Below, piece after piece: positions 1,951 to 26,404 of a DNA stretch of 64,000 bases. Position 1 is the stretch's first letter; each line of letters begins with the position of its first letter. Location of the stretch: positions 100,310-164,309 of the forward strand of contig CAVXEQ010000005.1 in the NCBI GenBank assembly GCA_963760905.1. Direction: 5' to 3'. The stretch is from Candidatus Bathyarchaeota archaeon. Lineage in GTDB: Archaea > Thermoproteota > Bathyarchaeia > Bathyarchaeales > Bathycorpusculaceae. Both the position numbers and the translations under genes were made by a program. The notes beneath the pieces were generated by a model. That model made no database searches and was not told the DNA's origin. It worked only from the letters and a program-made list of their open reading frames with translations.

Positions 1951-1995
1951 CTCGCACGCGCACTATATATGGGTCGAAGCATTCGCAGTTGCAGC

Positions 1996-2353: not shown

Positions 2354-2581
2354 ACCTATTAAGATAACCTCAATTGTTTTAACGTCTTGAATACCTATCG
2401 TGCACTTTAACTGAATAAAGCTATTTTTAAAGCACCGTGCTGGTTCAGAACCTTCACCTAACAAAGCTTAAGGATTTGTGGAATCCATATTGGATGTTGT
2501 CAACTAGAAAACTACGAGTGATCTTAGAAATAAAAAGAAAAGGGGCTTCTGAGAACTTGCTGGTCATTAAAGTAATATTTA

Positions 2582-5173: not shown

Positions 5174-5514
5174 TTATGGCATCCACACTTATCGAGTATT
5201 TTCGAATATAAGTATACGCGGTATTCTAAATAAACAAATAATTTCATACTTTATATAGTATGATAGTTGACAAGTAAAATATTTGGTTACTGGTAGTCAT
5301 AGCGCATGCTGTATATTCTATTTTTACCAGTAAAAATTTTGCCCTGTTTTGCCTTGATTTCAGAAATATCTACAAATAACCCAATTACGCCTATTTAGAC
5401 AAAATGACTTCAAAAACTGTCTTAAAAAATGGCGTCGGGAGAGAAGTTGGTGTGACCTCACAGTCACACATCCTTAATTCTGCAAAGTATTACTTGGATT
5501 TAGAGGTGAAGTGA

Positions 5515-5652
5515 ATGCCTGACGAGAAGAAAAAAGTTGAAAATGCTGCTGAAAAAACTGGAGAAGCAGTCGGCAAAGGCATCAAGAAAGGCGCCAAAGC
5601 CGTAAGCGACTTCGGAAAGGGAATAAAAAAAGAAATAAAGAAGAAAGAATAG
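5515..5652 (+). CDS. Small lysine-rich hypothetical protein (45 aa)
   Basis: Hand-translated: MPDEKKKVENAAEKTGEAVGKGIKKGAKAVSDFGKGIKKEIKKKE. GAGGTGA lies 5 nt upstream of the ATG. The gene is divergent from clpB. Confidence 0.4.
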   Translation: MPDEKKKVENAAEKTGEAVGKGIKKGAKAVSDFGKGIKKEIKKKE

Positions 5653-6111
5653 CAAAGCAAAATCCCCCTTTCTCATCAATTAACATGACGGTAATGATTT
5701 GAGAATCTTCATGAAATCGAAGGCCTGATCAAACTGGCAAAAGAAAATGGATGCCAGGATATCAGCGGCAATAGCCCATGAATACTTTAATGTCAAAGCG
5801 TCCACACAGGCATCAAAAGAAAAGGCGTGGGTTCGCTGAAAAAATTGGTTGCTATGAAAAAGAAGGGGCACCCGCTTGTGAATTCAATCAGTTGTTTTAA
5901 AGTCGTGGCAAAGGAGAAGAAATGGAAATGCAAACCATGGGTCATGATTAATGGACAGGCACAAAACCTATCCATAACGGCTTCTCCATCTACACTCTCA
6001 AAGATACACTAAACTAACGGGGTATCTCCAATTCTGAAGACTCTAACTGCCCTTCAATTGGATGCCGTCCATAAAACGAAACGTCAGATGCTTATTTAAT
6101 CAACAATTTTC

Positions 6112-7713: not shown

Positions 7714-7782
7714 ACAGTTTTCCTTAATCTTGCCTAAGCTGTAATCTTTTTAACTTAATTTGATCAAGAGAGGAGGGTGTGG

Positions 7783-7941
7783 TTATTTCCAAAGCTTTTT
7801 GCCAGTCAGAAGCCAAACCAGTACCAAGACTACGGCTATCACAAGCAGTATGTGTATTAACGCACCTACGCCTGGCAAAGCAAAGAACCCAATCAACCAA
7901 AGTATTATAATAACAGCAGCAATCGTCAATAACGTATTCAT
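7783..7941 (-). CDS. lmo0937-family small membrane protein (52 aa)
   Basis: Hand-translated: MNTLLTIAAVIIILWLIGFFALPGVGALIHILLVIAVVLVLVWLLTGKKLWK. This matches the LGF...G.LIHILLVIA pattern of that family. The listed plus-strand ORF 7760..7969 is its shadow. Confidence 0.65.
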   Translation of the reverse strand: MNTLLTIAAVIIILWLIGFFALPGVGALIHILLVIAVVLVLVWLLTGKKLWK

Positions 7942-8063
7942 AACTAACTTCACTACCTTACAAACGTGATTGAGCGAGTTAAAGGTGCGTGACTGTTAGC
8001 CTACACCTACATTCTAACGGTTCTGATTTACAAACTAAAAAGAAGACGACCTGAGTTTTTGGG

Positions 8064-8849
8064 TTAGTTATCGGCTTTTTTCCAGTCCGATTCAAAACCT
8101 GTTCTTAATACGCCGATAAGGTTGCTGTTGTTTGTCCACAAAGAAGGGCTTTCACCTAAACCGCTTTCTTTGGAAGTGGTAATCAACGCTTCTTTATCGT
8201 CAGACATAATGAAGTGATTCAAAGCTTCACGATGAAACTTAACGTGAACTGAAGCGCCATTGACGAGTTTTTGGACTTTTTCTTTAAGCAAATTGTCTGG
8301 GCTTTCTCCTTCAAAAAGCAGCCGAATCTGCGCTCCTTTCTTTATTGCATGTTTATGTTCATCCGAAAACTGAGCCAAAACCTGTGTGATTATTCCTTTG
8401 TCTGCAATCAAAGCGACTTCTTTTCTCGAATTTCTAATCAGTTCTGACGTTTTTGCCAGAATTGCTTTCTTTTCCGCTATCAGTATGTAGATGCTTTCTT
8501 CTCTGGGAGGCGGCTGCTTCCAATCTTTGAGAGATAGCTTCTGGACCATGCTTCTCATACCCATCAATCGTTCCTCGGATTTCTTTTTTTCTTCCGCCAC
8601 CAAGAAGCTTAAGGAATCCGAAATAAGGGTAGCCCGGACCTCAGTTGGTTTGCCTAGCAATCTCTCAACCAAGCCCATTTTTTCCAGTACCGGCAGAATT
8701 CTGTAGACATCTTCCCTGCGCACTTTCGAAAACTTCGCTACCTGCCCCACCGTAGTTTTTTCAAGTTTAAGTACGGCTAAGTACACCCTTGCCTGGTTAA
8801 GACTCAAACCCAAACCCAGGAGTAAATCAGTGTTTTCGTCGTTGGACAT
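8064..8849 (-). CDS. TrmB-family transcriptional regulator
   Basis: N-terminal winged HTH (LGLSLNQARVYLAVLKLEKTTVGQVAKFSKVRREDVYRILPVLEKMGLVE) followed by a TrmB-type C-terminal domain. Confidence 0.8.
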   Translation of the reverse strand: MSNDENTDLLLGLGLSLNQARVYLAVLKLEKTTVGQVAKFSKVRREDVYRILPVLEKMGLVERLLGKPTEVRATLISDSLSFLVAEEKKKSEERLMGMRSMVQKLSLKDWKQPPPREESIYILIAEKKAILAKTSELIRNSRKEVALIADKGIITQVLAQFSDEHKHAIKKGAQIRLLFEGESPDNLLKEKVQKLVNGASVHVKFHREALNHFIMSDDKEALITTSKESGLGESPSLWTNNSNLIGVLRTGFESDWKKADN

Positions 8850-9955: not shown

Positions 9956-10933
9956 TTAGGTTTCAATTGCCGCTTCCAATGTGAGGTCAACGACCTTTGC
10001 TGTTGGCGCATTATTTTTCACTGATGCGATGCCTGATTCGGCTGACTCTTTTGTTTGGTAGGATTGGCTTACAGCAATTATTTCCCCGTTGGCAGCTTTT
10101 AGGTGGAAACGCCACTTATCCGGACCATTGGTTTGAATTTCAAAAACTGGGTCTTGGGAAATTCCTTTTGCGTGCTTTGGCATAGCCCCTTCCAATGAGA
10201 GATCATCGACTCTAGCGATTGGCGCGTTCTTCTTAATTGAATCAATGCCGCTTATGGCCGACTCTTTTGCTCCGTAGGCCTGGCTTACAGCAACTATCTG
10301 CCCGTTGCCGGCTTTCAGATGGAAACGGAACTTCTTAGCAACGTCAAGTATGATCTCGAAGACTCCTTCGTTTTCTTTCGACGTTACAGGCACTTTAGCT
10401 ACTGGTATTTGTTCTGGAGTTTTCTCAACTACCGGCGCCACTTTTACGACCGGCATTGGTTCGAGCGCGATAAACTTCTTTCCCAGATCTATCGCCCAGT
10501 CCCTTACCCTATTCATATTTAGCTCGTCCATGACGGGTCTTCCCTGCCTAAGCATGCAGCCGCCAAAGGCAGCAACATAAACAGGCTTGAGAGACGTGTT
10601 CTTGGCCAGTACGCTCCTTGAATTGTCTTCAGTGCTTTGCGCCTTGGGGTTTTCCTCATCCTCACAACAGAAATAGACTGCAACGTTCCTACCCCCAAAG
10701 TCTTTCTCCAAAAAATTCACTGCTTCATTGTAAACATTTGCGCTTGCTACACCACCACCAACGATGATGTTTTGGAATGGTGCAATGTCTGGTTGGCCAT
10801 TCCTGAGGTCTGTGACGGTGACGTCCATGCTGTAGGTTGTTTTGAGTGTATCAGCTATGGCGTGTGCGGCGGCTTCATTTATTCCACTTTTTGTCGAATA
10901 TGCTATTAGAATTTTTCCTGTCATTGTTTTCAC
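9956..10933 (-). CDS. Flavodoxin-like domain fused to two tandem YegP/DUF1508 domains
   Basis: The N-terminus ILIAYSTKSGINEAAAHAIAD...IIVGGGV is flavodoxin-like. Two repeats follow, each with the pattern F(R)FHLKA(G/A)NGxI(V/I)AVSQ.Y..KESA.SGI.S(I/V)KKNAP.A.V.DL. Confidence 0.85.
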   Translation of the reverse strand: MKTMTGKILIAYSTKSGINEAAAHAIADTLKTTYSMDVTVTDLRNGQPDIAPFQNIIVGGGVASANVYNEAVNFLEKDFGGRNVAVYFCCEDEENPKAQSTEDNSRSVLAKNTSLKPVYVAAFGGCMLRQGRPVMDELNMNRVRDWAIDLGKKFIALEPMPVVKVAPVVEKTPEQIPVAKVPVTSKENEGVFEIILDVAKKFRFHLKAGNGQIVAVSQAYGAKESAISGIDSIKKNAPIARVDDLSLEGAMPKHAKGISQDPVFEIQTNGPDKWRFHLKAANGEIIAVSQSYQTKESAESGIASVKNNAPTAKVVDLTLEAAIET

Positions 10934-11638: not shown

Positions 11639-12559
11639 ATGAATCTTTCTACCCACATAATGTTTGGCATACTTGTTGGAGCCCTGTTTTTTGGCAAGCC
11701 CGAGATAGCGCTAATGATTGGTGTGGGTTCTGTAATTCCCGACCTAGACAGAGAATACGGTTTTTTTAGCAAGGAAACCTTTCGACTCCGACAAATACAC
11801 CGGGCATTATTCCACAATTTCTTGTTTATCGGAATAGTATATTTGATAAACCCGTTTTTTGGCATCGGAGCCTTTCTCCACTCGTTCCTAGATTCATTCA
11901 CCACAACAAGGGACCGAGGCGTCGAATGGCTCTACCCTTTTTCAAGAATTGTAACCGAAGCGGTGTATGACTCGGATGGCAACAAATTGCCTCTTGACCC
12001 AAAACATAAGATCTACTTTCTTTCTAACGATCTGCCTGGACTGACTCGCAGAACTACGAAAGATATTAAACCTGGCGAAGTACCCGTTCCAAATAGAAGA
12101 ACATATGGTCCAGCACTCTCAGGGAAGTATCTTGACCGATGCATCTTCGTTGGATCCATAGGTCTCGTTTTGCTTATGTTGCTCTTTTCTGTTCTTGGCT
12201 TGCAACAGTTCATTGATCTCAGCATGCATAAAGAAACACTTTCTCTTATCGTTCCGTTGATAGTTGGCTCTGTGGGAGTCTTTTTAAATTTTCTTGTTGG
12301 CGAACTTGACAGAAAAAAGCTTGTTAAGACAAAGTCAGATAGGCCTTACAAGTTTTCGTTTTTTGTGTCCGTTGGAATTATGATTTTCGCAATAGTTCTT
12401 GGTGGGATCATGAATCCGGAAGCTGTAGTTTCAACACTAAGCAAAATGCCCTACGTTGCCGCTGGGATAGTCGTCTTTGTTTTCGTCGCCTTTGGTGTAC
12501 TGGTTTATTCTACTCGAGGTTTTTCAGCAGAAAGCAAGAAAGAGCCACTTATCGTGTAA
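11639..12559 (+). CDS. Membrane-bound metal-dependent hydrolase, YdjM/DUF457-like
   Basis: N-terminal motifs THIMFG, IPDLD and HRALFHN, followed by C-terminal TM helices. Confidence 0.7.
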   Translation: MNLSTHIMFGILVGALFFGKPEIALMIGVGSVIPDLDREYGFFSKETFRLRQIHRALFHNFLFIGIVYLINPFFGIGAFLHSFLDSFTTTRDRGVEWLYPFSRIVTEAVYDSDGNKLPLDPKHKIYFLSNDLPGLTRRTTKDIKPGEVPVPNRRTYGPALSGKYLDRCIFVGSIGLVLLMLLFSVLGLQQFIDLSMHKETLSLIVPLIVGSVGVFLNFLVGELDRKKLVKTKSDRPYKFSFFVSVGIMIFAIVLGGIMNPEAVVSTLSKMPYVAAGIVVFVFVAFGVLVYSTRGFSAESKKEPLIV

Positions 12560-12795: not shown

Positions 12796-12870
12796 CGACT
12801 TAAAAGCAACAGATAAATGAACCACAATTGCGCTCATTTAATTAGGATATGCTCAAACTGGCAAATTGAC

Positions 12871-12895
12871 GGCGGGAAGTAGATTTAAACCCACG
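12871..12895 (-). repeat. tRNA-Ser 3'-end-like copy (T-arm plus acceptor), class I, copy 1
   Basis: ggcgggaagtagatttaaacccacg compared with the tRNA sequence gcgccgggagggggatttgaacccccg. About 100 bp of flanking homology with the copy at 22983. Confidence 0.55.
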
Positions 12896-13052
12896 TTTAA
12901 ATTCAACACAAGAGAATCGTTTGAGTAGAGTAATAAAACAAGAGTGCTATATTCAAGTAGATGGACACTTGGAAACTATGAAGCATAGAAGGTGAAGTTT
13001 GGTCAACCTCACCCAAGACGGAACTGTGTGTAAATGGAACAAAGTGTTTCTG

Positions 13053-13499
13053 TTATTGAACAGGTTTTTTACTTGAACATTTTTGGCAAACGCCATAAAC
13101 GTCAAGACGTTGACTTGTAGGAATGAACTTAGTAGCCGTGACAACCCTTTTAATCAGTTCTTTAGCAATAGGATCGTCTAAATCGTGGATTTTTCCGCAT
13201 CGCGAGCAAACCAAGTTTATGTGTGGCTCAAGATAAGGATCATATCTAGTCTGATCGCAGGGAAAAACCAATTCTTGGATCGAACAGCTCTCCCTTAGAA
13301 TCTGAAGAGTCTTGTACACTGTAGCTAAACTTACCGTGGGGTGAGTCTTTCTGACTTCACTGTAGATTCTTTGCACACTAGGATGCTCTCGACTTAAAAG
13401 CGCAAATTTGCAAATTGCTATTCTTTGCGGAGTTGCCTTGTATCCTTTGCTGCGAAGAGTTTGAATTATCGACGCAACTGATTTCTTCGATTCTTGCAT
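13053..13499 (-). CDS. Fur-family metalloregulator (PerR-like by context)
   Basis: DNA-binding helix region KATPQRIAICKFAL and the Cys pairs CSRCGK and CQKC. The ATG at 13499 (MQESKK) is preferred over 13538 because AT-rich TATA-like sequence lies just upstream. The gene is divergent from the catalase relic and katG. Confidence 0.85.
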   Translation of the reverse strand: MQESKKSVASIIQTLRSKGYKATPQRIAICKFALLSREHPSVQRIYSEVRKTHPTVSLATVYKTLQILRESCSIQELVFPCDQTRYDPYLEPHINLVCSRCGKIHDLDDPIAKELIKRVVTATKFIPTSQRLDVYGVCQKCSSKKPVQ

Positions 13500-13512
13500 A
13501 CATAATATTAGG

Positions 13513-13527
13513 TAATAATAACTATTA
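13513..13527. promoter_or_regulatory. Fur/PerR-box-like 7-1-7 inverted repeat TAATAAT-A-ACTATTA
   Basis: The arms match in 6 of 7 positions. It resembles the TTATAATNATTATAA / TGATAATNATTATCA box class and lies in the fur / catalase-katG divergent region. Confidence 0.4.
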
Positions 13528-13557
13528 AATAAGTCCATCCTCTTAATATGCAGTAAG

Positions 13558-13575
13558 GTCTCGTGTGAACGAGAC
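13558..13575. promoter_or_regulatory. Perfect inverted repeat GTCTCG-N6-CGAGAC upstream of the catalase relic and katG
   Basis: Seen directly in the sequence, 15 nt upstream of the ATG at 13590. Confidence 0.3.
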
Positions 13576-13589
13576 AGGATGTTTACATT

Positions 13590-15943
<2,354 letters not shown>

Positions 15944-16048
15944 CAAGAGATAACGATAACAATACAGCAAAAGTTGCTCGCTTGGAACGAGAAGTTTGGG
16001 ACTAACAGAAGCAGGCTACGATTACGTTTGCGAAATGGAACATTTCAA

Positions 16049-16090
16049 GCACCGGAAGGGGGATACTAGCCAAATTTTACCAGCAAGAAG
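16049..16090 (-). repeat. tRNA-Ser 3'-end-like copy, class II, copy A0
   Basis: gcaccggaagggggatactagccaaattttaccagcaagaag compared with copy A, gcgccgggagggggataccagccccaatttaccagtaaaaag. Confidence 0.55.
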
Positions 16091-16122
16091 TAATTTTTAC
16101 TGTAGCCTTCCAGCGCGGGTTT

Positions 16123-16587
16123 CTATGTTAAAGCTGCTCCACAGTTAATGCATTTGGATGCGTCTGGTTTGTTTTTGGTTCCACAGTATGAGCAAATTAT
16201 CATTGCTGGCATTGTCTCTTCGGTTAAGGCCTGTGTTTGGGCTTTGCTGATGTTTTCTCTTATTGTTCTGTAGGCTTTTTCTGCGTCAGCTTTGGGTACA
16301 TCGGTTAGTAAAAGAGGAGGCGCCGTGGCTTTGAGGGTGCATTTGATTGTTGAGCGTAGTATTCCTTTGTCGATGTTTACGTCTTCGAAGTCGTTGTATT
16401 GGTAGTCGGTGTAGTCTTTTTTTAGCCCAAGCGCATGGGGATGGCGCAGAATTACCCGCTGGTTAGTTATGACAACCGAGTCGATGTCAACCGCGAGGTG
16501 ATAAAACTTCTGCTTTATGTAGAGCTCAACTGTCTCGTTTGGATCAAGAATGTCTTTCAAATCATCAGGAGTCATCATAAAAATCAA
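16123..16587 (-). CDS. Bacterial-type PH domain (bPH_2/YdbT-like) protein with a C-terminal zinc ribbon
   Basis: VVITNQRVILRHPHALGLKKDYTDYQYNDFEDVNIDKGILRSTI is a bPH_2-like pattern. The C-terminus carries CSYCGTKNKPDASKCINCG. Confidence 0.65.
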   Translation of the reverse strand: MIFMMTPDDLKDILDPNETVELYIKQKFYHLAVDIDSVVITNQRVILRHPHALGLKKDYTDYQYNDFEDVNIDKGILRSTIKCTLKATAPPLLLTDVPKADAEKAYRTIRENISKAQTQALTEETMPAMIICSYCGTKNKPDASKCINCGAALT

Positions 16588-16890
16588 CCACTAAAAGAGA
16601 GAGTGAACAATTATTTATCCCTTAACAGAAGAACATAAAAATGAACCGAAACACCGAATTGCACGCCATTATTGACTTTTGTCGCTGCAATTCTCCAACC
16701 TTATCTTAAAGTTGCGGTTTCCCAAGTTGATGATAATTTGAGATTGATTCAGATGCCTCCTTTACTTCATGGGCAGAATCATTGATGACTTTTCTTATTT
16801 ATTGTAAAATGCGTTGTGTATCTTTTGGAAAAGCAGTTATATATTCATCTATAGATCTGAATGATCTTCTCACGGAATTTGCTTCTTCGG

Positions 16891-17331
16891 TTAGAAGGCA
16901 CCAGCTGCATTGGGCATGTTGGGCATAATTTGTTGTGTCACATCCCAGTACTCGATGATCTTATCGCCGTTGAAACGGAAAAGATGAACTTGCCTTAAAC
17001 CTCCTGCACTCGGATTGGAAGCGGAGATTTGAGTATGTACTGCAACCAGATCGCCGTCAGCAAGAATCTGCCTGATAATAAGCTTAAAATCAGCCGTTGA
17101 CCCCTCAATTATTCCTTGCGCGCCTTGTTTTTGCACGGCAACCATAGCTTCTATTAATTCCTTAATGCCTCCAACGGTATATGGATTGTGAGTCTTACAT
17201 TCAGGCCAAAAGAACCGTAGCCCATCCAGCGGTCTTCCTAAACTAACTAAATTAAAAAACTCGACTGCAATATCCTTGTGGACTTTATTAACATCGTTTT
17301 TAGGTACTTCAAAAAATGTTTTGTTATTCAT
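16891..17331 (-). CDS. SnoaL/NTF2-like fold protein
   Basis: 146 aa with the pattern ...ADGDLVAVHTQI...HLFRFNGDKIIEYWDV, typical of SnoaL-like proteins. Confidence 0.6.
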   Translation of the reverse strand: MNNKTFFEVPKNDVNKVHKDIAVEFFNLVSLGRPLDGLRFFWPECKTHNPYTVGGIKELIEAMVAVQKQGAQGIIEGSTADFKLIIRQILADGDLVAVHTQISASNPSAGGLRQVHLFRFNGDKIIEYWDVTQQIMPNMPNAAGAF

Positions 17332-17616
17332 TTTTATACCTGAAAAAGGTTAAAAATTAACAATATTTAAGCGTTTTTGAAGACATTTTTCCGACAGAAG
17401 GGTATTAAATCGCTAACAATCAGCTAACCGCGAGAATTGTTGCAAAAGGTACATTCCAGAGATAACCATAAGGTATAGGTGGAGCAACTGAAATCATTTA
17501 TAGAAGCGGTAGGCATTGTCACACAAATCGGGATATGGTAAACAATTATGAGACTTTTGAACCTAAAAAGCTGGAAAAAGATGCTGAAAATAAAAGAAGA
17601 AAAAATTCAAAATTCA

Positions 17617-18060
17617 CTAAATTCCTTCTGTTCCACGTATCTCGAAATGTTCATCTGTGGCGGTATGGGTGAACAACATCTGAATAGAGTTGTGGGTGCC
17701 ATTATTAGACAGAGTGTAACGGTCAGGATTTTGTTCGTAGTATTTCCAGATTAATGAGATGTTTCCCCCGATTAAGTCAGTTGGAATTGTTATGTTAAAG
17801 TTGACAGTTTGCCTATTCGGCCCGATGAAATCACAGTTAACATATTTTGATTCTGTTTCAGGCAAGTAAACTCTTGGTGCTGAGGTCCAATTGGTTCTAA
17901 CGGTTATGATGTAGGTTTTCTCTCCAACCGAGACAGAATAGTTGTATAATTTAGTTTCTGCTTCTTTCTTCGCCAATAAATCAACCCATAGAAACCCAGC
18001 TATTAGGGCTATGATCAGGATTACTGACACAAGCGTTAATGTCAACGTTTTTCTCTTCAT
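17617..18060 (-). CDS. Hypothetical secreted or membrane-anchored protein
   Basis: N-terminal signal or anchor sequence MKRKTLTLTLVSVILIIALIAGFLWV. No family recognised. Confidence 0.5.
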   Translation of the reverse strand: MKRKTLTLTLVSVILIIALIAGFLWVDLLAKKEAETKLYNYSVSVGEKTYIITVRTNWTSAPRVYLPETESKYVNCDFIGPNRQTVNFNITIPTDLIGGNISLIWKYYEQNPDRYTLSNNGTHNSIQMLFTHTATDEHFEIRGTEGI

Positions 18061-18184
18061 AACACCGATTATGTTAGGTTATTCGTCTAAAAGGGCTTTT
18101 TGGTCACGTTTGTTTTCAAGTGTTTTGGTCGATTTGGCTGGAGTGGAACTTCAACCCCAGGCAAGTTGAGCAGTCGTTGCATCG

Positions 18185-18560
18185 AACCTTCTGAGCGTTG
18201 AGATATCACCCAAACCCCTCTCTTTTTTATGGTCTTAGAGAAAAAGCGATAACTGTTCTCTATTTTTGGGGACGGTTTTTGAGTTTAGGTTCGATTCCCT
18301 TCCTCTTTTTGGGTTCAAATAAGTACCTTGAATGGTTAATTATCTTGGATCCTTTTAATTACAGATGAATTGATAGTCCTTCTGCTTTTGCGAGATTTCA
18401 TATGCAGCAAATCATTAATTTTAAATGGCTTCAAACACGCCGATTTTAGACAAATTAAGCTCAAAAATAGTCATAACTTGTAAAATGGCGCCGGGAGGGG
18501 GATACCAGCCCCAATTTACCAGTAAAAAGATCTTAAAAGTGATCCCGGACAAGACTTCCC
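18185..18560 (-). repeat. Diverged intergenic repeat module of about 370 bp, copy A (contains tRNA-Ser-like core 18488-18503)
   Basis: Aligns over its length with 20826-21215, at roughly 65-75% identity by eye. The 16 nt gcgccgggagggggat are identical to 26291-26306 in the tRNA. Confidence 0.7.
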
Positions 18561-18678
18561 GAAAATGCTCTGGTCCCTTCCCTAAAATTTTAATATCTTG
18601 CTCTCTCATCTAGACATTTTATAGGAAAGGCAGCAAAGAGTCAATTATAAGCTTTGTTAAAGTTTTCGTTGCCTGACT

Positions 18679-18963
18679 CTATTGCTTTCTTTCTTCAAGG
18701 GCCAGTTGGTCGAGATAGTATTTTCCGTTGACTTCTACGAAGATTTTTGTTTGTTCTCTACGTCTTTCCATTATTCTTACAAATATCCGTGACAAACCCA
18801 GTTCTTTAGCTGTCAGGGCAGTTTGGGGGCTGATGGCACCTTTCTCCTGGAATTTCTGGATAATTTGCTGAATTTTCTCATCTCGCCAGCCTTGCGGCTC
18901 AGTTGGTTCTTGTGGGCTTGGTGGAGGAGAGGATACTGGGGCAGGTATCGGCGTAGTTTGCAC
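18679..18963 (-). CDS. Hypothetical protein with a Pro-rich N-terminus (GTG start)
   Basis: 94-aa ORF. The C-terminal part (ALTAKELGLSRIFVRIMERRREQ) could be a small HTH. Support is weak. Confidence 0.35.
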   Translation of the reverse strand: MQTTPIPAPVSSPPPSPQEPTEPQGWRDEKIQQIIQKFQEKGAISPQTALTAKELGLSRIFVRIMERRREQTKIFVEVNGKYYLDQLALEERKQ

Positions 18964-19043
18964 TGGGGTTTGGGTTTGTTGTGTTCCTTTGGCTACATTG
19001 AAAGTTGCTTTGTCTTCACTATCAGTGCCATTTCCACTTCTGT

Positions 19044-19739
19044 CTACTTTCGGTGCGTCAGAGGGTGTTGGGTTAGTTTCATGACAACTTCAGTTTTGTT
19101 TTTAACTGAAACAAACATCGGCATTGAAGCAATGTACCCTGTGGCACTGGCTTTAATTGAGTAATCGCCATCTTTGAAGTCGCCGAAAACAGCTTGTCCT
19201 TTGTTGTTGGTTGTGCCTGATAAGTCTTGTTGACCGCTAGCAGATACAGTTGCTCCAGAAATTGGCGATTGAGTTTGAGAGTTTTGCACTTTCACTACGA
19301 ATTTGCGTTGACGCTTGCGCCACAATAGAATTATGATAATCAGCAATACGATGGCTATGATCACTATTATCCAATAAATTGAGCTGAAACCGGGTGAACC
19401 TGAACTTGGGGTAGAGGAAGCAGACGAAGTTGGATTAGTGTTAGTGGAAGTAGAGGGGGTAGTGGAAGCAGACGTGCTTGAGGAATCTGAGATCACTGAA
19501 ACAGTGTTTAATACTTGATTAGTTACGAAGACCTCACCTTTAGCAGAATCGTAGGTTAAAAAGAAAGGTCCAGCAAAATGGTCGATTAAGGGCAAATTAA
19601 CTGTTGCAACTACGGTGTTTGTACTATCAGATATGATCGAGACATCGTTGCTGACAAAATTAGCAACAAACATCTCGCTCATGTTAGAATCATAAGCTAA
19701 ACCGTCAGGACTTACTGCGTGGTTAAGGTTCAAATCCAC
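19044..19739 (-). CDS. C-terminal fragment of the same YVTN gene: propeller repeats, S/T-rich linker, TM helix and a CarboxypepD_reg-like domain
   Basis: The repeat series continues (LAYDSNMSEMFVANFVSNDVSIISDSTNTVVATV). It is followed by STSASTTPSTSTNTNPTSSASSTPSS, the TM helix IYWIIVIIAIVLLIIIILLW, and GATVSASG...GDYSIKASATGY. Confidence 0.7.
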   Translation of the reverse strand: MDLNLNHAVSPDGLAYDSNMSEMFVANFVSNDVSIISDSTNTVVATVNLPLIDHFAGPFFLTYDSAKGEVFVTNQVLNTVSVISDSSSTSASTTPSTSTNTNPTSSASSTPSSGSPGFSSIYWIIVIIAIVLLIIIILLWRKRQRKFVVKVQNSQTQSPISGATVSASGQQDLSGTTNNKGQAVFGDFKDGDYSIKASATGYIASMPMFVSVKNKTEVVMKLTQHPLTHRK

Positions 19740-20506
19740 GGTTCAACCACGGCGTTTGTGCTATCAGATATGACGTAGACGTAATTTCCAGAATCGGTGA
19801 CGAAGATTTCGCCTTTGCCAGAATCATAAGCTACGTAATTGGGGCCGGTTCCCGCAGGTAAGGTTATTGTTGCAACTACGGTGTGAGTGCTATCTGAAAT
19901 TACAGAAACCGAATTGCTGTTTCCGTTGGTTACGAAGATCTCTCCCATAGCAGAATCATAGGCCGCGCCCTTTGGATTGGCTCCGACGGTTATGGTTGTG
20001 AGTACAGTATTAGTGCTATCTGATATTACAGAAACGTTACCGTCGCCACCATTGCACACATATATCTCACCTTTGGCAGAATCATAAGCTTCACCCATAG
20101 GGTAGGTACCAACTGTAACGTTTGCAACTATGGCGTTGGTGCTGTCTGATATTACATAAACCTTATTGCCACCATAAGCTGTAACGAAAATTTCCCCCTT
20201 GCCAGAATCATAAACCACATATCCAGCAGGAGCACCCAAGTCAATGCTGGCAATTACTTTGTTATTACTGTCCGATATTACCGAGACCGTGTTCGTGCCA
20301 GCTTGAGAGGTTACATTAAAACCCCCTGGGGATCCAGCATTGGCAACGAAGATTTCTCCTTTAGCAGAATCGTAAGCAATACCCAGCGGAGCGAATCCCA
20401 CCGTTATTGTATCTGTTAATCCTGCACCGTGAACTTCACAAGCAGTTGACAGAGCAAAAATTATAATGAATATTAAACTTAAAAACTTCCACACTTTAAC
20501 TTTCAT
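19730..20506 (-). CDS. YVTN-family beta-propeller repeat surface protein, N-terminal fragment (frameshifted gene)
   Basis: Signal peptide MKVKVWKFLSLIFIIIFALSTA, with GGGAGGG upstream of the ATG at 20506. It contains 6 repeats of AYDS.KGEIFV.N....VSVISDSTN.V. Confidence 0.8.
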   Translation of the reverse strand: MKVKVWKFLSLIFIIIFALSTACEVHGAGLTDTITVGFAPLGIAYDSAKGEIFVANAGSPGGFNVTSQAGTNTVSVISDSNNKVIASIDLGAPAGYVVYDSGKGEIFVTAYGGNKVYVISDSTNAIVANVTVGTYPMGEAYDSAKGEIYVCNGGDGNVSVISDSTNTVLTTITVGANPKGAAYDSAMGEIFVTNGNSNSVSVISDSTHTVVATITLPAGTGPNYVAYDSGKGEIFVTDSGNYVYVISDSTNAVVEPWI

Positions 20507-20825
20507 TGTAATCTTCCCTCCCCCCTGAATCGGGTGGGTCAAAGTAGATTTAAGGCTTTCGCTTGCTTGCTCAGGGTACCCTTCGATGAGTTGATTCTGT
20601 ATGTATATCCACAAGTTAACATTTGCATTAAACCAGAATGTCCATACCCCCCCGATTGGCTCTTTAATTTGGAAATTTCCTATGAAAGATTGTCTTTGAT
20701 TTTAATGAATTGCTCCATTCAGTTTTTCCAGTGCTGTTGAGATTACATATTTGGCGAGGCCATTCATTTTGTCGGCGAATAGGTCAATGGAATTTTGTCG
20801 CCAATAAGCGGCAGAATTAAAGGAA

Positions 20826-21215
20826 GAACGCTGAACCGAACTTACCCCCAAACGGTTATTATGCGCTTTCTGAAAAAACATGCTCTAAGGAGGAAAGGGA
20901 CCAACAGCGAATCTGGGGATGGCATCTGAGTTGAGGTGCGATTCCCTGCCCCCCGCTTAGGGTTCAAAGAAATGATTTGCAGGAATATTATTGGATTCAT
21001 CTAATTATTGATGAATTTATCCCTTCAGACCTTTGGAAGATTTCGGATGTAGCAAACTCCTAATCTGAATGTATTTCAACTATGCTGAGTTTAGACGAAT
21101 AGCTCTTTTGGTAAAATAACGCTGGAATTGAATCCCGTTCCAATTTACTGGTAGAAACTCTTGATATTGATCGGTTCACATACTTCTTAAATGACCTTTC
21201 AAATAAATGGTGAAA
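20826..21215 (-). repeat. Diverged intergenic repeat module, copy B (degenerate tRNA-Ser-like core about 21119-21158)
   Basis: Homologous to 18185-18560 in the same orientation. Together the two copies bracket the YVTN gene and ORF 18679..18963. Confidence 0.7.
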
Positions 21216-21328
21216 AATAATTGATTTTCAGATTGACAATATGTTTAGAAAAAACTAGGGTGTATCAACTAATAAAAAATAATGAATCAGAATAAGACTA
21301 TTTGAGCTAGTGGTCTCTTAGTTGATTT

Positions 21329-21736
21329 TTAAGTTTTTGGTGGCATGTCCGGCTGCAGAAGTCCAAAAGAGTTACCTTCTGGGTCCGCTGCTATTGCAAA
21401 CCATCCTATTGTGGGTATTTGTTTCTTTGGAATCAAGATCTTTCCGCCTTCTTTGGTAACCATATCTGTGTATTTGTCGATGTCTTCTACGCTGATGTAA
21501 TTGACTTGTGGAGCGCCTTGCATTCCTTGGGTACGCGGGTATAAGCCACCGTTTACGCCTGGTCGCTGAAGCATTCCTTTGTCGTCGGTAGGAACGGTAG
21601 CTATTATGTAGTATTCTACATCCGGCATGGGTGATTTCGTGATTTTCCATCCAAGGACACTCTCATAGAATTTTTGCAGTTTCTTAATATCATTTGCAGG
21701 AATTTCAAAATGAACAACTGTGTGATCCAATTTCAA
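21329..21736 (-). CDS. VOC/glyoxalase family protein
   Basis: HFEIPANDIKKLQKFYESVLGWKI...GWFAIAADPEGNSFGLLQ. TTG start with AGGAG upstream. Confidence 0.8.
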   Translation of the reverse strand: MKLDHTVVHFEIPANDIKKLQKFYESVLGWKITKSPMPDVEYYIIATVPTDDKGMLQRPGVNGGLYPRTQGMQGAPQVNYISVEDIDKYTDMVTKEGGKILIPKKQIPTIGWFAIAADPEGNSFGLLQPDMPPKT

Positions 21737-22120
21737 ACAGCTCCTTTGTTTAGGATTTCAAAGTCTGCTGTGAGTTAAAACTATGTGTTTGTTCTATGCC
21801 TACCACAAGTGGTTAAGCCCTTAAACATATAGAATTAAGAAAAGACATATGCATGTTAATAATTGGCTTGCGGGGGATATTAGTCTCAACTTGCGAGTGA
21901 AAAGATTTGATGGCTGAGGTTCTATGTTTTTGAAAAAAAGCGGCAAGGCAAAATACGGCTGGTTTCACTTTTTAGCACTGGTGTAAACTATGGAAATGTC
22001 CCTTAAACTAAAAGACGCTTTGTTTCAAGAATGAAACCTGAACTTAAAGGAAAGCGTCTTCTCTTTATTAATGCTAAAGTCGTTAAAACCTTAAATCTTA
22101 TATTGTGTCTTACATAACGT

Positions 22121-22345
22121 ATGACAATGAAGACTGTAAGCGTAAGAATATCCGAAGAAGAAAAGCATCAATTAAAGAAGTATGGCAAATTATCAGATGC
22201 ACTAAGGGAAGGCATGAAACTCTACCTAAACAAAAAGAAATCCGACGAGTTGCTATGCAAACTGGAAAAACTACAATTTGAAAGCCAAATAAAAACCTCA
22301 TTTGAGGAAGAAGTGAAACTGATTCGAGAGGATAGAGGACGTTGA
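22121..22345 (+). CDS. vapB: VapB-type antitoxin (RHH-like)
   Basis: 74 aa (TVSVRISEEEKHQLKKYGK). It overlaps the downstream PIN gene by 4 nt. Confidence 0.65.
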   Translation: MTMKTVSVRISEEEKHQLKKYGKLSDALREGMKLYLNKKKSDELLCKLEKLQFESQIKTSFEEEVKLIREDRGR

Positions 22346-22719
22346 TAGTTGCGGACAGCAGTTTCATAGTTGAAGGCCTCCTTAAGAATAAAGAATTACT
22401 TGCGAATGACCATATTGTGGCTCCTGAGTTAGTTGCCTACGAAGTTACAAACGCCATTTGGAAGCATGAAAATCTTTTGAAGGACTTAGAAAACGGCGAA
22501 CCATACGTATCGATTTTCTACGGCCTAGTAGAAGCTGGGAAAATAAAGATTCTAACTCCAAACGAAAAGTTGATGCAGGAATCATATTTGATTGCAAAAA
22601 GGCAAGGAATCACAATATACGACGCAGTTTTCGTTTCATTGGCGATTAAATTAGGATTGCCCTTAAAGAGTTACGACAGAACTCAAATTCAAGCTCTGGA
22701 ATCAGAGAAAAGCCACTGA
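22342..22719 (+). CDS. vapC: PIN-domain toxin VapC
   Basis: IVADSSFIVEGLL... with an acidic-residue pattern typical of PIN domains. TTG start inside GTTGA, overlapping the vapB stop. Confidence 0.8.
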   Translation: MIVADSSFIVEGLLKNKELLANDHIVAPELVAYEVTNAIWKHENLLKDLENGEPYVSIFYGLVEAGKIKILTPNEKLMQESYLIAKRQGITIYDAVFVSLAIKLGLPLKSYDRTQIQALESEKSH

Positions 22720-22982
22720 AAACTCAGTGTCAAGGCGCGCTAAATGTAAGGTATGTAAAAAGCCTCAGAATCATAAAACTGAATAGCTATCGGTATTCAG
22801 AATATGAATTCGTTTTAACCGAAGAAAAACTACCATCGCCGTATCGAAAGAAAGACTGAGTAAAGAGAGCGTGCACCATTCTGTTTAGGGAGCGAACGAG
22901 CCCCTTAACTTTTGAACAAAAATAAACCAAAATTGTTGTTATTCAGTCAAATTGACCTCAACATGCTACTAATTGCTGAAAT

Positions 22983-23009
22983 GGCGCGGGAGGTAGGTTT
23001 AAACCCACG
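22983..23009 (-). repeat. tRNA-Ser 3'-end-like copy, class I, copy 2 (with TGG = encoded CCA)
   Basis: ggcgcgggaggtaggtttaaacccacg matches 22 of 27 positions of the tRNA plus-strand sequence. Its flanks are homologous to those of the copy at 12871. Confidence 0.55.
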
Positions 23010-23245
23010 TTTAAATTTCACGCGACACAGTCTATGTAAAAACTAAAACAAATCCCTGTGTACGATTATATAAGCGTCAAATCCCTCAACTAATGAGGAA
23101 GGTCTACCCCATTTTGCGTTGGGTTCGGAAACAAAAAGCACTAAATCAAGAAAGGTTAGGGTCCGATGGGAACGTTGCTGTACAGACATCTTTTGTGATT
23201 TTTCCATCCTTTTTCACCTGTTGGGTTAGCGGTCAATTTATTGTG

Positions 23246-24064
23246 TTAAGTGAGGTCTCTTCTTTTAAAAATCAGGTAGCCAATTAGTAAGCTCACCACT
23301 AAGTATCCGACCATAATAGCAATGCTTTCAGGTATGGTTGCAAAGTATGTAGTTTCAGGTCCGCTTATAATAACATGTGGCGGATAAGGAACGGAGAAAA
23401 CATTTACAATGGATTGTCCTGCATAGCTTAAGATATACCATGTTTCTCCAGCCTGAAGCCGCTCTAATAATCGTTCTAGCAATGAGAAGCCAAAAAGTAG
23501 GGTAACGGCGCTGAAAAGTACAGAGATAGCGGCGTTTTTGAACAATGTGCTTAAAAGAAACGCAACTCCCAGAGAAGCAGTCATCATTAAAACTGTTAAG
23601 GCGAAGGATTCCCAAAACTGAATAGGCACCAAAAAGCCGAAGTAGTATAGACCATTTCCTAAAGTAATGAACTCAAAAATAGATAGCATACATAATGAAG
23701 CGACAAAGGCTGCAACTACTTTACCAATATACATTGACGACCTGAGAATTGGGTTGCCGATCATTGAATAAGCTGTTTTATTCTGAAATTCGCTTGAAAT
23801 AGCATCGCTCCCGAAGAAGACTGCCGGAAGAACAATGATGTAGGCAATTGTAAAGCCCAGCCAACCTCCGTAGAATGTTATAGGGCTGGATAACATCGAA
23901 GCTGGGTGAATATAAGCAATGAATGCCGTTGAGCCAATTCCAGCCGCCAATATAACAGCCACAAGTAGTAAAAAGCGTCTTGATCGAATATAATTTAACA
24001 ATTCATATCTTGCGATTATAACTATATGCGAAATGTTGCTCGGGGTGATAACTTTCGTGGTCAT
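23246..24064 (-). CDS. ABC-2 type transporter permease
   Basis: 272 aa with six predicted TM segments, immediately downstream of the ATPase gene. Confidence 0.8.
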   Translation of the reverse strand: MTTKVITPSNISHIVIIARYELLNYIRSRRFLLLVAVILAAGIGSTAFIAYIHPASMLSSPITFYGGWLGFTIAYIIVLPAVFFGSDAISSEFQNKTAYSMIGNPILRSSMYIGKVVAAFVASLCMLSIFEFITLGNGLYYFGFLVPIQFWESFALTVLMMTASLGVAFLLSTLFKNAAISVLFSAVTLLFGFSLLERLLERLQAGETWYILSYAGQSIVNVFSVPYPPHVIISGPETTYFATIPESIAIMVGYLVVSLLIGYLIFKRRDLT

Positions 24065-24997
24065 TTATTGAACCTCCTTGATTAAATTAAGATAGGTTTC
24101 TTCAAGCGCCATACTAGAATCCTTGAATGCAATAAGACCTGTATCCAGCGAAACAAGCAGCTTTACGATTTTTTCCTGAACCTCAAATCCACCAGAAAAA
24201 TGAAGTCTAAGGCTTCTAGAGTTAACCTTTTCAATTGAGCTTACCAAACCGGATAATTTTGGCTCCACATCAATGTAGTTTAGTGGTCGTGAGAACATAA
24301 GGTCAAAAATTGTATCTCCACCTATTGCCGCATTTAACTGCTCCATTGTTTCATAAACGAGAAGTTTTCCCTTGTTTACGATTGCGACTTCGTCGCATAA
24401 ATTTGAAACCTCTCCTAAAAGATGGGAACTCATGAAAATCAATCGGTCTTGTTTTAGGTCATTAAGAATGGTTCTAAATTCAGCCATTCCTCGTGGATCC
24501 AGACCGTTTGTAGGTTCATCAAGTAACAGTACATCTGGGTGGCCTATTATTGCTGCTGCAAGATTAATTCGTTGTTTCATGCCTCTAGAGAAAGTGCCAA
24601 CTTTGCTGTCTATCCATTCATTCATCTTAACAGAGGTAATTACCTTTTCAATTTGTTTTTGACGCTCTGAGGGCGGAACGCCTTTGATTTCTGCAAATAG
24701 AGACAGAGCCTCTCGAGATGTTAGAGCAGGGTAGATCTCTGGGCTCTCAATAAGTACGCCACAAGATGCCAATGCGTTTCTTTTATCCTTAGCAACATCC
24801 ACTCCATTGATCAGTGCCTTTCCTTGAAAACTTCTTATCATATCACAAAGGATTTTGAGCGTAGTCGTTTTTCCAGCACCGTTGGGTCCAAGAAAGCCGA
24901 CACATTTGGCACCCTCAATTTTAAGGTTCAAGTTTAACAGTGCTGTGAAGGAGCCGTATTTTTTTGAGAGGTTAATCGTTTCTATGGATGGCATCAT
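24065..24997 (-). CDS. ABC transporter ATP-binding protein
   Basis: Walker A GPNGAGKTT, signature-like FSRGMKQR and Walker B LLLDEPTNGLD. Confidence 0.95.
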   Translation of the reverse strand: MMPSIETINLSKKYGSFTALLNLNLKIEGAKCVGFLGPNGAGKTTTLKILCDMIRSFQGKALINGVDVAKDKRNALASCGVLIESPEIYPALTSREALSLFAEIKGVPPSERQKQIEKVITSVKMNEWIDSKVGTFSRGMKQRINLAAAIIGHPDVLLLDEPTNGLDPRGMAEFRTILNDLKQDRLIFMSSHLLGEVSNLCDEVAIVNKGKLLVYETMEQLNAAIGGDTIFDLMFSRPLNYIDVEPKLSGLVSSIEKVNSRSLRLHFSGGFEVQEKIVKLLVSLDTGLIAFKDSSMALEETYLNLIKEVQ

Positions 24998-25057
24998 GAT
25001 CAGCAGTATGATTAGTGTGAAAACTTAAAAGGTGAACTCATTCGGAGGGAGTGAACT

Positions 25058-25354
25058 TTATGTTCTTAGACGGAGCCTTGGAAACTTGAGTTGCCCTACA
25101 TATTTCATTATCCACTTTACGAGGTCATCGTATGCCTCGGAGCCTTCCTTAGTTAAAACAACCAAGCCATCATTGTCAATCATTATAAAGCCTTTCTCAG
25201 ACATCCAACTCAAGTATTTGACAAGTTTGTCATATGCCAAACCGGTAGAGGTGGCAAGCGCAGTTTTATTCATCTTGTTTTTCTCTTTTAGCGCCTTTAT
25301 GATGCGGGCGATGACATAGAGGTCTGGTTTAGAGCTGGGCGCTTCTGAGTTCAA
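25058..25354 (-). CDS. Winged-helix DNA-binding protein
   Basis: ARIIKALKEKNKMNKTALATSTGLAYDKLVKYLSWMSEKGFI is a wHTH pattern. The gene lies upstream of the ABC genes. Confidence 0.6.
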   Translation of the reverse strand: MNSEAPSSKPDLYVIARIIKALKEKNKMNKTALATSTGLAYDKLVKYLSWMSEKGFIMIDNDGLVVLTKEGSEAYDDLVKWIMKYVGQLKFPRLRLRT

Positions 25355-26006
25355 GGCTAAACCACCTTAGCTCTAAAAGGAGCATATCTAAATCATGAAT
25401 CTCTTTATAGCGTCTCAACAGGTCTCTACCTAAGACCAGAATGACTATAATTAGTGAAAACGCTATCCATATCAGACTGTCAAGTAATACTGTCCTATGC
25501 AAGAAATAAAGCGTTAAAATGTTAACTACAAGCTGTATACTGGAAAATGTAATCAGCCAGTACGCGGCTGTTTTAAGTAGTCCGTAAATCGCGTAACTTA
25601 GTTTTCCCTTAAAGATTTCATCAAGAATTTTGTCCCAATCGAGTTCGATCACCACTTCTAAGGCCCCAGGAAACCCTTGTGAAAGTTTCTCTTTCCACTC
25701 ACCGGTCCTGACCTTGTTTACTTGCTTTTTTACATAAATTACTCCTGATGCTAAACCGATTAGAGGAATTAGAAGTAACGAGAAACGGAAGATGGTGCTT
25801 AGAGGCCATATTGTGGAATAGTCAAATCCAGTTACATCCAGTAAAGCGTTTAAAGTGAGGTAGACGGCAATTGAACCGATTATTATTAGCGCGAACTTTT
25901 TTAGCGAGCGGGCAAGCGCATTGTATCTTTTAAGGTGATCTAGTGTTTCCATCAACTCTGAAACTTTAGTGATAACGTTGTTTTCATTTAATGCTGAATC
26001 TTTCAT
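25329..26006 (-). CDS. Hypothetical polytopic membrane protein
   Basis: 225 aa with several hydrophobic helices. Its 3' end overlaps the wHTH gene start by 26 nt. Confidence 0.55.
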   Translation of the reverse strand: MKDSALNENNVITKVSELMETLDHLKRYNALARSLKKFALIIIGSIAVYLTLNALLDVTGFDYSTIWPLSTIFRFSLLLIPLIGLASGVIYVKKQVNKVRTGEWKEKLSQGFPGALEVVIELDWDKILDEIFKGKLSYAIYGLLKTAAYWLITFSSIQLVVNILTLYFLHRTVLLDSLIWIAFSLIIVILVLGRDLLRRYKEIHDLDMLLLELRWFSLELRSAQL

Positions 26007-26291
26007 GGCTTGGCTCTTAACTAAATCGTTTAATGAAGCTAGTCAAACAATGCTCAGACTCTAAGGCAAATATAAAGCAAACTCCCCCCGGATGAGTCTT
26101 TTCAAAGGTCTCAGAAAGTACTCCAAGAACTGTTTATTTAAAAATCGGCTTTTAGAGCATTAAACGTTAAATTTAAACTCCGAATCGAAACAAGACGCCG
26201 GGCGGTAAAAGTTAAAACAGAAAAAAGCAAGTAAATTGCACAAAAGAGGCAGAGACCAATCAAGAAACAGGCAAAAATTAAGTAAGAAAAG

Positions 26292-26404
26292 CGCCGGGAG
26301 GGGGATTTGAACCCCCGAGGCCCGAAGACCACAAGCTATTCGGTGCTAGCTGGATAGCTGAGTCATTTCCAGACTTGCTCCCTGCCTGGCTAGGAGACCC
26401 CGGC
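26292..26404 (-). tRNA. tRNA-Ser (anticodon GGA) with a 29-nt intron after position 37
   Basis: Folded by hand. Acceptor stem GCCGGGG/TCCCGGC with discriminator G. D-arm TCCT-AGCCAGGCA-GGGA. Anticodon stem CAAGT/GCTTG with loop CTGGAA|A. Long variable arm TGGTCTTCGGGCCTC. T-arm GGGGG-TTCAAAT-CCCCC. The intron spans 26338-26366 and contains CCAG, which is complementary to the anticodon-loop CTGG. No CCA is encoded. Confidence 0.88.

Follow-up and report, generated by a model that had tools for sequence, protein, structure and literature searches.

The 64,000-nucleotide (nt) stretch analysed here (positions 100,310 to 164,309 of contig CAVXEQ010000005.1, assembly GCA_963760905.1; hereafter the window) derives from a Candidatus Bathyarchaeota archaeon of the Bathycorpusculaceae and harbors a minus-strand tRNA-Ser(GGA) gene. 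To its left lies an array of repeats that incorporate the 3′ end of this tRNA, separate small groups of accessory genes and are treated below as attachment (att) sites. An earlier reading made from the letters and open reading frames (ORFs) only (the sequence-only reading) had placed the tRNA gene at 26292..26404, and this was confirmed by a local scan with the Rfam tRNA model (32.8 bits at 26292-26404, minus strand) and by ARAGORN with introns allowed (-i), which gives a tRNA-Ser(gga) with a mature length of 85 nt and a 29-nt intron in the anticodon loop. Because of this intron, the gene is missed by ARAGORN under default settings and by an Rfam scan of the whole window. The final 15 nt of the tRNA, which read CGCCGGGAGGGGGAT on the plus strand (26292-26306), constitute the core of the repeat. 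Outward from the tRNA, the copies delimit an ABC-2 exporter module, a module with VOC and VapBC genes, a surface protein module, a PH/zinc-ribbon and SnoaL module, a fur-katG module ending in an integrase stump and an outer segment of about 7 kb that extends to clpB (Table 1).

The sequence-only reading described five degenerate copies of the tRNA end, at 12871, 16049, 18488, 21119 and 22983, within 13.5 kb. The sequences it quoted are present at these positions, and the core at 18488-18503 is identical to the tRNA end (16/16). In a shuffled control, proposed with that reading, the terminal 45 nt of the tRNA were aligned locally to the window and to 60 shuffles that preserve its dinucleotide composition, and the maximum score per shuffle averaged 12.15 (standard deviation: 0.81; highest: 14). 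The site at 18488 (score: 16) exceeds all 60 shuffles and that at 12871 (14) ties with the best of them, while the sites at 22983 (13), 16049 (11) and 21119 (9) fall within chance. As such, as copies of the tRNA end by themselves, only 18488 is significant. Profile hidden Markov models (HMMs) built solely from copies in other genomes and run on the window with nhmmer nevertheless recover every one of the five sites, with all matches on the plus strand, and the five therefore stand as members of one repeat family. They had been divided into two classes, 12871 with 22983 and 16049 with 18488 and 21119. The first pair (copies A1 and A2) holds, sharing 30/32 nt (12872-12903; blastn-short E: 2.5e-8) and a retained T-arm-like extension, and 18488 and 21119 (B2 and B3) are both full units of about 265 nt; 16049 (B1) consists only of core and right arm, its left arm being deleted. 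The copies at 12871, 22983 and 5348 carry a short-type left arm. The last of these, at 5348-5441 (nhmmer E: 2e-13 and 1.9e-7), is absent from the earlier account and shows blastn matches to short units in three other loci (L024o, L017o and L046o), while the adjoining 5284-5337 is a weak candidate only. The array thus spans approximately 5284-26404, or about 21 kb, with at least seven att copies, and exceeds the 13.5 kb and five copies first described. Among the copies, B3 matches the units of a dozen loci at 70-80% identity in blastn, and the left flank of A2 is homologous to L046o 10294-10505. The strongly diverged arm at 26265-26291, which is unlike the well-conserved arm following the tRNA in L002, L017, L023, L027 and L029, marks the tRNA-proximal end of the youngest module.

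Table 1. Features of the tRNA-Ser(GGA) array, listed outward from the tRNA (positions are those of the window)
Feature	Position	Strand	Description	Support
tRNA-Ser(GGA)	26291..26404	-	Probable integration target (attB)	Rfam tRNA model; ARAGORN with introns allowed
tRNA end	26283-26315		Profile match to the tRNA end	nhmmer E 9e-4
Left arm beside tRNA	26265..26291	+	Short left (P) arm, strongly diverged, just downstream of the tRNA 3′ end	nhmmer 26265-26315 E 0.07
Module 1	23018..26264		ABC-2 permease 23246-24064 (-); ABC ATPase 24065-24997 (-); 225-aa membrane protein 25329-26006 (-)	Pfam
att copy A2	22909..23017	+	Short-type left arm, core GGCGC-GGGAGG, T-arm-like extension TAGGTTTAAACCCACG	nhmmer 22909-22993 E 4e-6
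Module 2	21159..22908		VOC/glyoxalase 21329-21736 (-); VapBC-like 22121-22345 (+); PIN 22342-22719 (+)	Pfam
att candidate in module 2	21864-21906		Weak, decayed	nhmmer 21872-21906 E 0.27
att copy B3	20905..21158	+	Full left arm, decayed core CGCTGGAATTGAAT, right arm	nhmmer E 2e-33
Module 3	18531..20904		CarboxypepD_reg 19044-19739 (-); NHL/YVTN propeller 19730-20614 (-); secreted/surface proteins	Pfam
att copy B2	18265..18530	+	Best-preserved full unit: left arm of about 225 nt, core, right arm ACCAGCCCCAATTTACCAGTAAAAAG	nhmmer E 9e-65
Module 4	16091..18264		PH/zinc-ribbon 16123-16587 (-); SnoaL-like 16891-17331 (-); 147-aa protein without known family 17617-18060 (-)	Pfam
att copy B1	16049..16090	+	Core CACCGGAAGGGGGAT and right arm only	nhmmer 16049-16086 E 2e-6 and 1.7e-4
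Integrase stump	15952..16049	+	Frameshifted 3′ remnant of a tyrosine-integrase gene, about 35 codons, ..NNTAKVARLEREVWD / LTEAGYDYVCEMEHFK, fused to the B1 core	
Module 5	12904..15951		fur 13053-13538 (-); katG 13766-15943 (+)	Pfam
att copy A1	12797..12903	+	Short-type left arm, decayed core, T-arm-like extension	nhmmer 12797-12888 E 6e-5
Outermost segment	5444..12796		Module status uncertain, att copies on both sides; 45-aa lysine-rich ORF 5515-5652; LPG-synthase-like membrane protein with repeat tail 6112-7713 (-); TrmB regulator 8064-8849 (-); flavodoxin-DUF1508 protein 9956-10933 (-); YdjM 11639-12559 (+)	Pfam
Distal end of array	5284..5443	+	Decayed minimal att 5284-5337 (TTACTGGTA, TTTTTACCAGTAAAAA), then short-type left arm and degenerate core 5345-5443	

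The homology around the window sites, when compared with locus L002, reaches far past the 15 nt derived from the tRNA, and the whole repeat, at most about 280 nt long, has a composite, attP-like structure. It comprises a left arm of about 235 nt that ends in ...TTTAGACAAAATAAGCTCAAAAAcaaccc.aac.GGTAAAATGG, the 15-nt core and a right arm of about 27 nt, and occurs in a full form and in a short form with a left-arm variant of its own. T-runs are found in the left arm right after the tRNA end. A near-palindromic motif of 10-12 nt, TTTACCrGTAAA, is located on both sides of the core and recurs at 5284-5337; judging by their sequence, these motifs may correspond to the protein-binding sites expected of a recombination site, which they resemble. 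A third half-site, TACCAG, takes the place of the tRNA T-loop at 5284-5337 and 18474-18530 in the window and in all attP-like copies of L010-L055.

Several other identities were considered for the unit and rejected. As a structured RNA, it yields RNAalifold consensus energies of only -6.5 and -2.7 on the two strands for 11 copies and matches no Rfam family besides tRNA; as a coding sequence, it shows stop codons conserved in all frames and a frame that is not kept among the copies. An SSV-type split integrase gene was discarded given that the integrase stop codon precedes the unit, and a tRNA-like minihelix given that other copies do not keep the acceptor-like pairing possible in copy B2. The unit is also not a dispersed repeat akin to miniature inverted-repeat transposable elements or repetitive extragenic palindromes, as the significant copies in the window are all on one strand and confined to the tRNA-Ser array, the other 38 kb containing none; elsewhere in the Bathyarchaeia, an inverted orientation was seen for two short copies (L010o and L045o). 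Finally, an integron with an attC array was set aside, as neither IntI nor another intact integrase was found, the unit is conserved in sequence with a negligible consensus fold, and the multi-gene modules are of mixed orientation.

The genes beside the tRNA include cbf5, whose product carries a DKCLD domain, and a gene for a creatininase-family protein, with nearest database relatives in Bathyarchaeota/Bathyarchaeia. An orthologous tRNA is located at the equivalent position in four loci (L002, L004, L005 and L006), which keep the gene order of the window on the right-hand side of the tRNA, at 72-76% nucleotide identity (72-74% for L004-L006 alone). The shared genes on this side code for the creatininase (83% identical between L002 and the window), a methyltransferase and Cbf5 in all four loci, and L004 and L006 have a called DUF1801 gene as well. 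To the left of the tRNA, the same loci hold genes unrelated to those of the window, namely NikR-ZnuABC or folate-synthesis genes, and L004-L006 contain no repeat of their own tRNA end within 9 kb. Gene order therefore breaks at the tRNA-Ser, and the side to its left is variable among relatives and is not conserved core sequence, which had been raised as a possible explanation alongside the sequence-only reading: L004-L006 are collinear to the right of the tRNA only and lack the repeats. Three further loci (L017, L024 and L029) carry the att unit yet have no gene order in common with the window on the right side. Since the unit is present in these three and absent from L004-L006, its distribution does not track genome relatedness.

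The sequence-only reading reported no recombinase ORF. This is correct for intact genes, but 15952-16049 retains about 35 codons of a tyrosine-integrase gene as a stump. A homologous, intact version of the peptide is found in L029 (..DNNTAKVAHSEQEVCELIEAGYEYVCEMDHFKLFRKRK*); used as a tblastn query, it recovers the stump with a summed E-value of 6.7e-11, while the P0139 query gives 4.8e-4. Database relatives of this peptide are fragments of 33-88 amino acids (aa) that start with ..ILGHRSIQNTLVYAQL.., which corresponds to box II and the catalytic tyrosine of tyrosine recombinases (LGHxSIxNTLxYxxL), and their C-terminal residues are ..FRKRK. The C-terminal extension past this tyrosine (..YTAKVA..E..LIEAGFEYVC....K.FRKRK) matches no Pfam family. 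Full-length members of the family match PF00589, and their nearest solved structures are those of archaeal XerA (4a8e and 5hxy). The IMG/VR contigs L062 and L063 contain intact genes; that of L057 is near-complete, interrupted by one frameshift. The distance from the end of the gene or fragment to the following tRNA gene or tRNA 3′ fragment is 20-60 nt in L056, L057, L060, L062, L068 and L069. At the tRNA-Ser unit, integrase stumps of 38-99 aa end 17-45 nt ahead of the left arm in L050o (99 aa), L029o, L043o and L034o, a fixed place relative to the arm. The integrase ORF stops ahead of the left arm, at about 250-280 nt from the core; the att site is therefore outside it, and the arrangement is not that of the SSV type.

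Intact members of the family were seen only beside tRNAs other than that of the tRNA-Ser unit, or with unassigned downstream sequence (L063). A search with the 98-aa fragment of L050 (reverse complement of 895-1191) returned 543 relatives, of which the best 120 are all 73-171 aa in length and include no full-length integrase of the tRNA-Ser clade; the 14 retrieved from these 120 have variable 5′ truncation points, some with unrelated N-termini. In the public data for Bathyarchaeia, full-length genes of this clade appear to be very scarce. A neutral account of the excess of truncated genes would be that deletions cannot enter the essential tRNA, so that the 3′ end of the integrase gene is the last to go. 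Two fragments, P0154 and P0168, are located beside a different tRNA and without the att unit. Another tRNA, in L068, is accompanied by an N-terminal (1114-1380, minus strand) and a C-terminal (10028-10330, plus strand) integrase fragment that are separated by 8.7 kb and oppositely oriented, with the defence-like genes GIY-YIG, DUF6884 and Dev_Cell_Death between them, a layout that may reflect an inversion inside the island.

The occurrence of the unit beyond the window was determined with a left-arm pattern, which identified 10 Bathyarchaeota loci among species-representative genomes, and with a longer version extended to the arm-end motif GTAAANTGG, which identified 13 metagenome contigs. In the genome scan, 22 of the 33 matches were chance matches in non-Bathyarchaeia genomes, mostly AT-rich bacteria; among viral contigs, the left-arm pattern had no match and the pattern of core and right arm two chance matches inside a coding region. 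More than 20 other Bathyarchaeia loci have arrays of units in the same orientation at tRNA-Ser(GGA) or tRNA-Ser(TGA). The unit directly follows an intact tRNA-Ser(GGA) in six of these (L002, L017, L023, L027, L029 and L043), and is found downstream of tRNA-Ser(TGA) in two (L038 3494-3574 and L049 2756-2836), with a truncated katG just ahead of the arm. As tRNA-Ser(TGA) shares only its acceptor 3′ end with tRNA-Ser(GGA), the use of both isoacceptors restricts the crossover either to the arm or to the final 9-10 nt of the tRNA. Complete arm-core-arm junctions away from a tRNA body occur in 11/13 of the metagenome matches. Arrays of two to six copies, spaced at about 0.1-7 kb and typically about 2 kb, were observed in L046o, L024o, L029o, L017o, L010o, L055o and L045o, and that of L046o comprises five or six copies over 12 kb and ends at the tRNA. 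A tRNA-Ser gene is present in eleven of the unit loci, the others being 8-kb tiles or short contigs without one. One metagenome-assembled genome (MAG), MFD02416.bin.1.250, contains a complete unit on one contig (L012) and a tRNA-Ser with its own unit on another (L027); either the array was split by the assembly, or there are att copies away from the tRNA.

The katG gene stands out within the array with a GC content of 55%, compared with approximately 40% in the adjoining segments. The region 13749-16050, consisting of katG and the integrase stump, shares 90.2% nucleotide identity with L029o 1732-4036 and 85% with L034o. L029 (CAWDYC010000005.1) is another Bathyarchaeota MAG with no gene order in common with the window beside the tRNA, and its katG module is located between a short att copy and the left arm beside the tRNA. 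The junction between katG and the integrase stump is identical in the window, L029 and L034, and the neighbours on both sides differ; therefore, either the katG module was already without its integrase when it moved, or recombination between att copies reshuffled the arrays. A truncated katG fragment of 86% identity is furthermore fused to the unit at tRNA-Ser(TGA) in L038 and L049. The katG gene looks like a recent acquisition, probably of a bacterial-type catalase-peroxidase, that is spreading in an anaerobic lineage.

Among the remaining cargo, module 1 has no nucleotide homology to the ABC-2 operon at the equivalent position in L002, while the SnoaL gene of module 4 is also found in the L002 array, where it is inverted. 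Module 2 may be split in two by the weak att candidate within it. The att unit and the first 0.9 kb of the module 3 cargo are collinear with metagenome contig L053 at 78% identity. In the outermost segment, the LPG-synthase-like protein has a C-terminal tail of about 200 aa made up of near-perfect tandem repeats of about 33 aa (..DSDRKDFEKLSDSNESDYKEQRDANRKDFEEKT..). Heat-shock genes are located at the outer end of the array (Hsp20 at 113-709 and ClpB at 2582-5173, minus strand), and the outermost att remnants lie in the upstream region of clpB, 110-270 nt from its start codon. A module of L046 encodes a 1183-aa STAND-like ATPase with AAA_16, TPR and KaiC domains (4687-8235, minus strand) and an AAA_14/DUF4143 ATPase (3361-4578, minus strand) beside a hybrid-cluster protein gene, and this cargo looks like defence and stress genes.

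We consider it likely that the locus represents a decayed tandem array of small integrative elements that were successively inserted into the 3′ end of tRNA-Ser(GGA). That the repeats are att sites left by successive integrations was proposed in the sequence-only reading, and it is supported by the composite unit at tRNA-Ser in more than 20 loci, the break in gene order and the integrase remnants. In the ancestral element, attP would have combined the 15-nt core, equal to the 3′ end of the tRNA, with a left arm of about 235 nt on one side and a right arm of about 27 nt on the other, and a tyrosine-integrase gene would have ended 17-45 nt ahead of the left arm and read toward the tRNA. Once integrated, the element would have the order core, right arm, cargo, integrase, left arm and core/tRNA. 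Recombination between attP and the tRNA end would restore the tRNA, with a copy of the core left behind at the distal end of the element, and each newcomer at the intact tRNA would displace the older elements outward, which would produce att copies of the same orientation and internal junctions resembling a complete attP. The integrase genes would later have been deleted from the 5′ side, with one stump left in the window, and the cores and arms of the older copies would have decayed. We infer this direction and order of insertion, as we do the position of the crossover and any ability to recombine that the copies may retain. The earlier description of the elements as fixed and decayed is qualified by the integrase-less katG module, which has the same junction in three genomes.

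A number of observations weigh against a tandem array of integrated elements. An intact integrase gene was found neither among the window ORFs with Pfam nor by tblastn with five integrase queries, nor beside the att unit in about 25 related loci. Pfam and PHROGs annotation of 52 ORFs from 10 loci likewise revealed no intact integrase among the top 25 families listed, in which weak matches could be hidden, and Pfam annotation of L046 and other loci none beside the unit. The modules, at about 0.1-7 kb and typically about 2 kb, are very small and below the size of typical self-sufficient elements. The per-segment GC profile suggested with the sequence-only reading sets only katG apart, the other segments being like the surrounding genome. 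The outermost copy (5345-5443) has a left arm without a right arm, the reverse of what a simple model predicts for the oldest junction. The spacer between the T-stem-like repeats is CTGGTAT in the attP-like copies and TTCAAAT in the tRNA, and this mismatch leaves the crossover point undefined. Finally, a precise empty site with the left flank of the window itself (the clpB side) was not recovered, and the outer boundary of the array is for this reason an inferred one.

Alternatively, the array might be a live, integron-like cassette platform, in which integrase-less modules of about 1-3 kb bounded by att units (katG, hcp, toxin-antitoxin, exporter and defence-like ATPase genes) are inserted, excised and shuffled at tRNA-Ser, and exchanged between distant lineages, by a tyrosine integrase acting in trans, whose gene would reside at another place in the genome or on a passing element. 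There is no intact integrase beside the unit in the approximately 25 loci, yet the units are 75-95% identical across genomes and metagenome contigs; the modules are cassette-sized; katG and the stump share one deletion junction in the window, L029 and L034 amid differing neighbours, with a fragment also at tRNA-Ser(TGA); and the best 120 of the 543 integrase relatives are all 5′-truncated fragments. We nevertheless regard such a platform as unlikely. Neither a trans-acting integrase nor a circular or excised form was observed, and many copies, including most of those in the window, have decayed cores that are unable to recombine. Between the window and L053, unit and adjoining cargo show the same degree of conservation (78%), which fits inheritance as a block. 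The excess of integrase 3′ ends has a neutral account in that those near an essential tRNA are expected to be lost last, and homologous recombination between 280-nt repeats could shuffle modules too.

Less probable still is that the long left arm is native downstream sequence of tRNA-Ser, such as a terminator, a regulatory region or an unrecognised RNA, with the repeats arising through segmental duplication and homologous recombination. The left arm does follow the intact tRNA immediately in six genomes, with T-runs just past the tRNA end, and the near-palindromic TTTACCrGTAAA motifs could, by their sequence, bind a regulator. However, several arms are present per locus, as well as one on a tRNA-less contig of the same MAG (L012 compared with L027), and the arm is absent from L004-L006, where the gene order of the window is kept beside the tRNA, and present in L017, L024 and L029, where it is not. 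The arm furthermore always lies just after integrase 3′ remnants, has no conserved RNA structure (alifold: -6.5 and -2.7), Rfam match or conserved ORF, and in the copies outside the tRNA is accompanied by a second conserved arm across the core. Chance matches of a GC-rich tRNA end in an AT-rich 64-kb window, to which the position of four of the five claimed sites within the shuffled range for the tRNA 45-mer alone might point, have practically no probability left and are refuted by the recovery of all sites on one strand with profiles from other genomes (E: 6e-5 to 9e-65) and by flanking homology of 100-250 nt.

Krupovic et al. (2019, PMC6563490) note that tyrosine-recombinase elements, archaeal and bacterial, can form arrays when a single att site is used repeatedly. 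The array interpreted here as decayed integrative elements resembles such tandem arrays at tRNA genes in its tRNA 3′-end target, direct repeats of the tRNA end, accretion at a single site and att scars on decay, as well as in its accessory cargo of stress, toxin-antitoxin and transporter genes. It differs in that no module of the window has an intact integrase, in the conservation of a long-arm att unit over many MAGs and two tRNA-Ser isoacceptors, and in its module size of about 2 kb, compared with a median of 17 kb for thaumarchaeal cryptic elements (PMC6563490). The family shares PF00589 and its nearest structures with archaeal XerA-like recombinases, from which its distinctive C-terminal extension sets it apart. 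In layout, with the att site outside the ORF and the gene left unsplit, it is also like the archaeal integrases that stay intact on integration, often termed pNOB8-type. The SSV-type integrases, termed 'suicidal', have their att site inside the integrase gene (Badel et al. 2020, PMC7253208). Elements with these integrases are similar to those discussed here as archaeal tRNA-targeting elements that become trapped, with plentiful integrase pseudogene fragments beside tRNAs; they are unlike them in that the stop codon here precedes the att arm and the 5′ truncations are variable in place of a fixed Int(N)/Int(C) split.

Arrays of integrase-less modules are also represented by the cis-mobilizable elements (CIMEs) and accretion at the att sites of integrative and conjugative elements in streptococci, by integron cassette arrays and by clusters of attC sites lacking integron-integrases (CALINs). 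The window array shares with these its small integrase-less modules bounded by recombination sites of the same orientation. It differs from CIMEs and integrons in that no mobilising integrase was identified, in a tRNA-anchored att site conserved in sequence as opposed to structured attC hairpins, and in genes of mixed orientation and many decayed sites.

As it stands, the array is a well-documented instance of a familiar phenomenon. What is new is the att unit as such, its distribution over Bathyarchaeia genomes at two tRNA-Ser genes, the integrase clade with the FRKRK tail and the shared katG module; in the literature, we found no account of this att unit or of such arrays in Bathyarchaeia. 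The near-identical katG module is probably a concrete case of gene flow between Bathyarchaeia, and the array would explain how katG, an oxygen-stress gene of apparently foreign composition, came into the genome of the window together with fur. For the Bathyarchaeia, which are abundant but have few cultures and no genetic tools, the locus supplies a concrete integration hotspot and an att site (arm, core, arm) that is tied to a lineage-specific tyrosine-integrase clade with a distinctive C-terminal tail. If the modules are in fact mobilised in trans, they would constitute a new type of gene-capture platform, and the att unit and its integrase would be candidate parts for site-specific integration tools in Bathyarchaeia.

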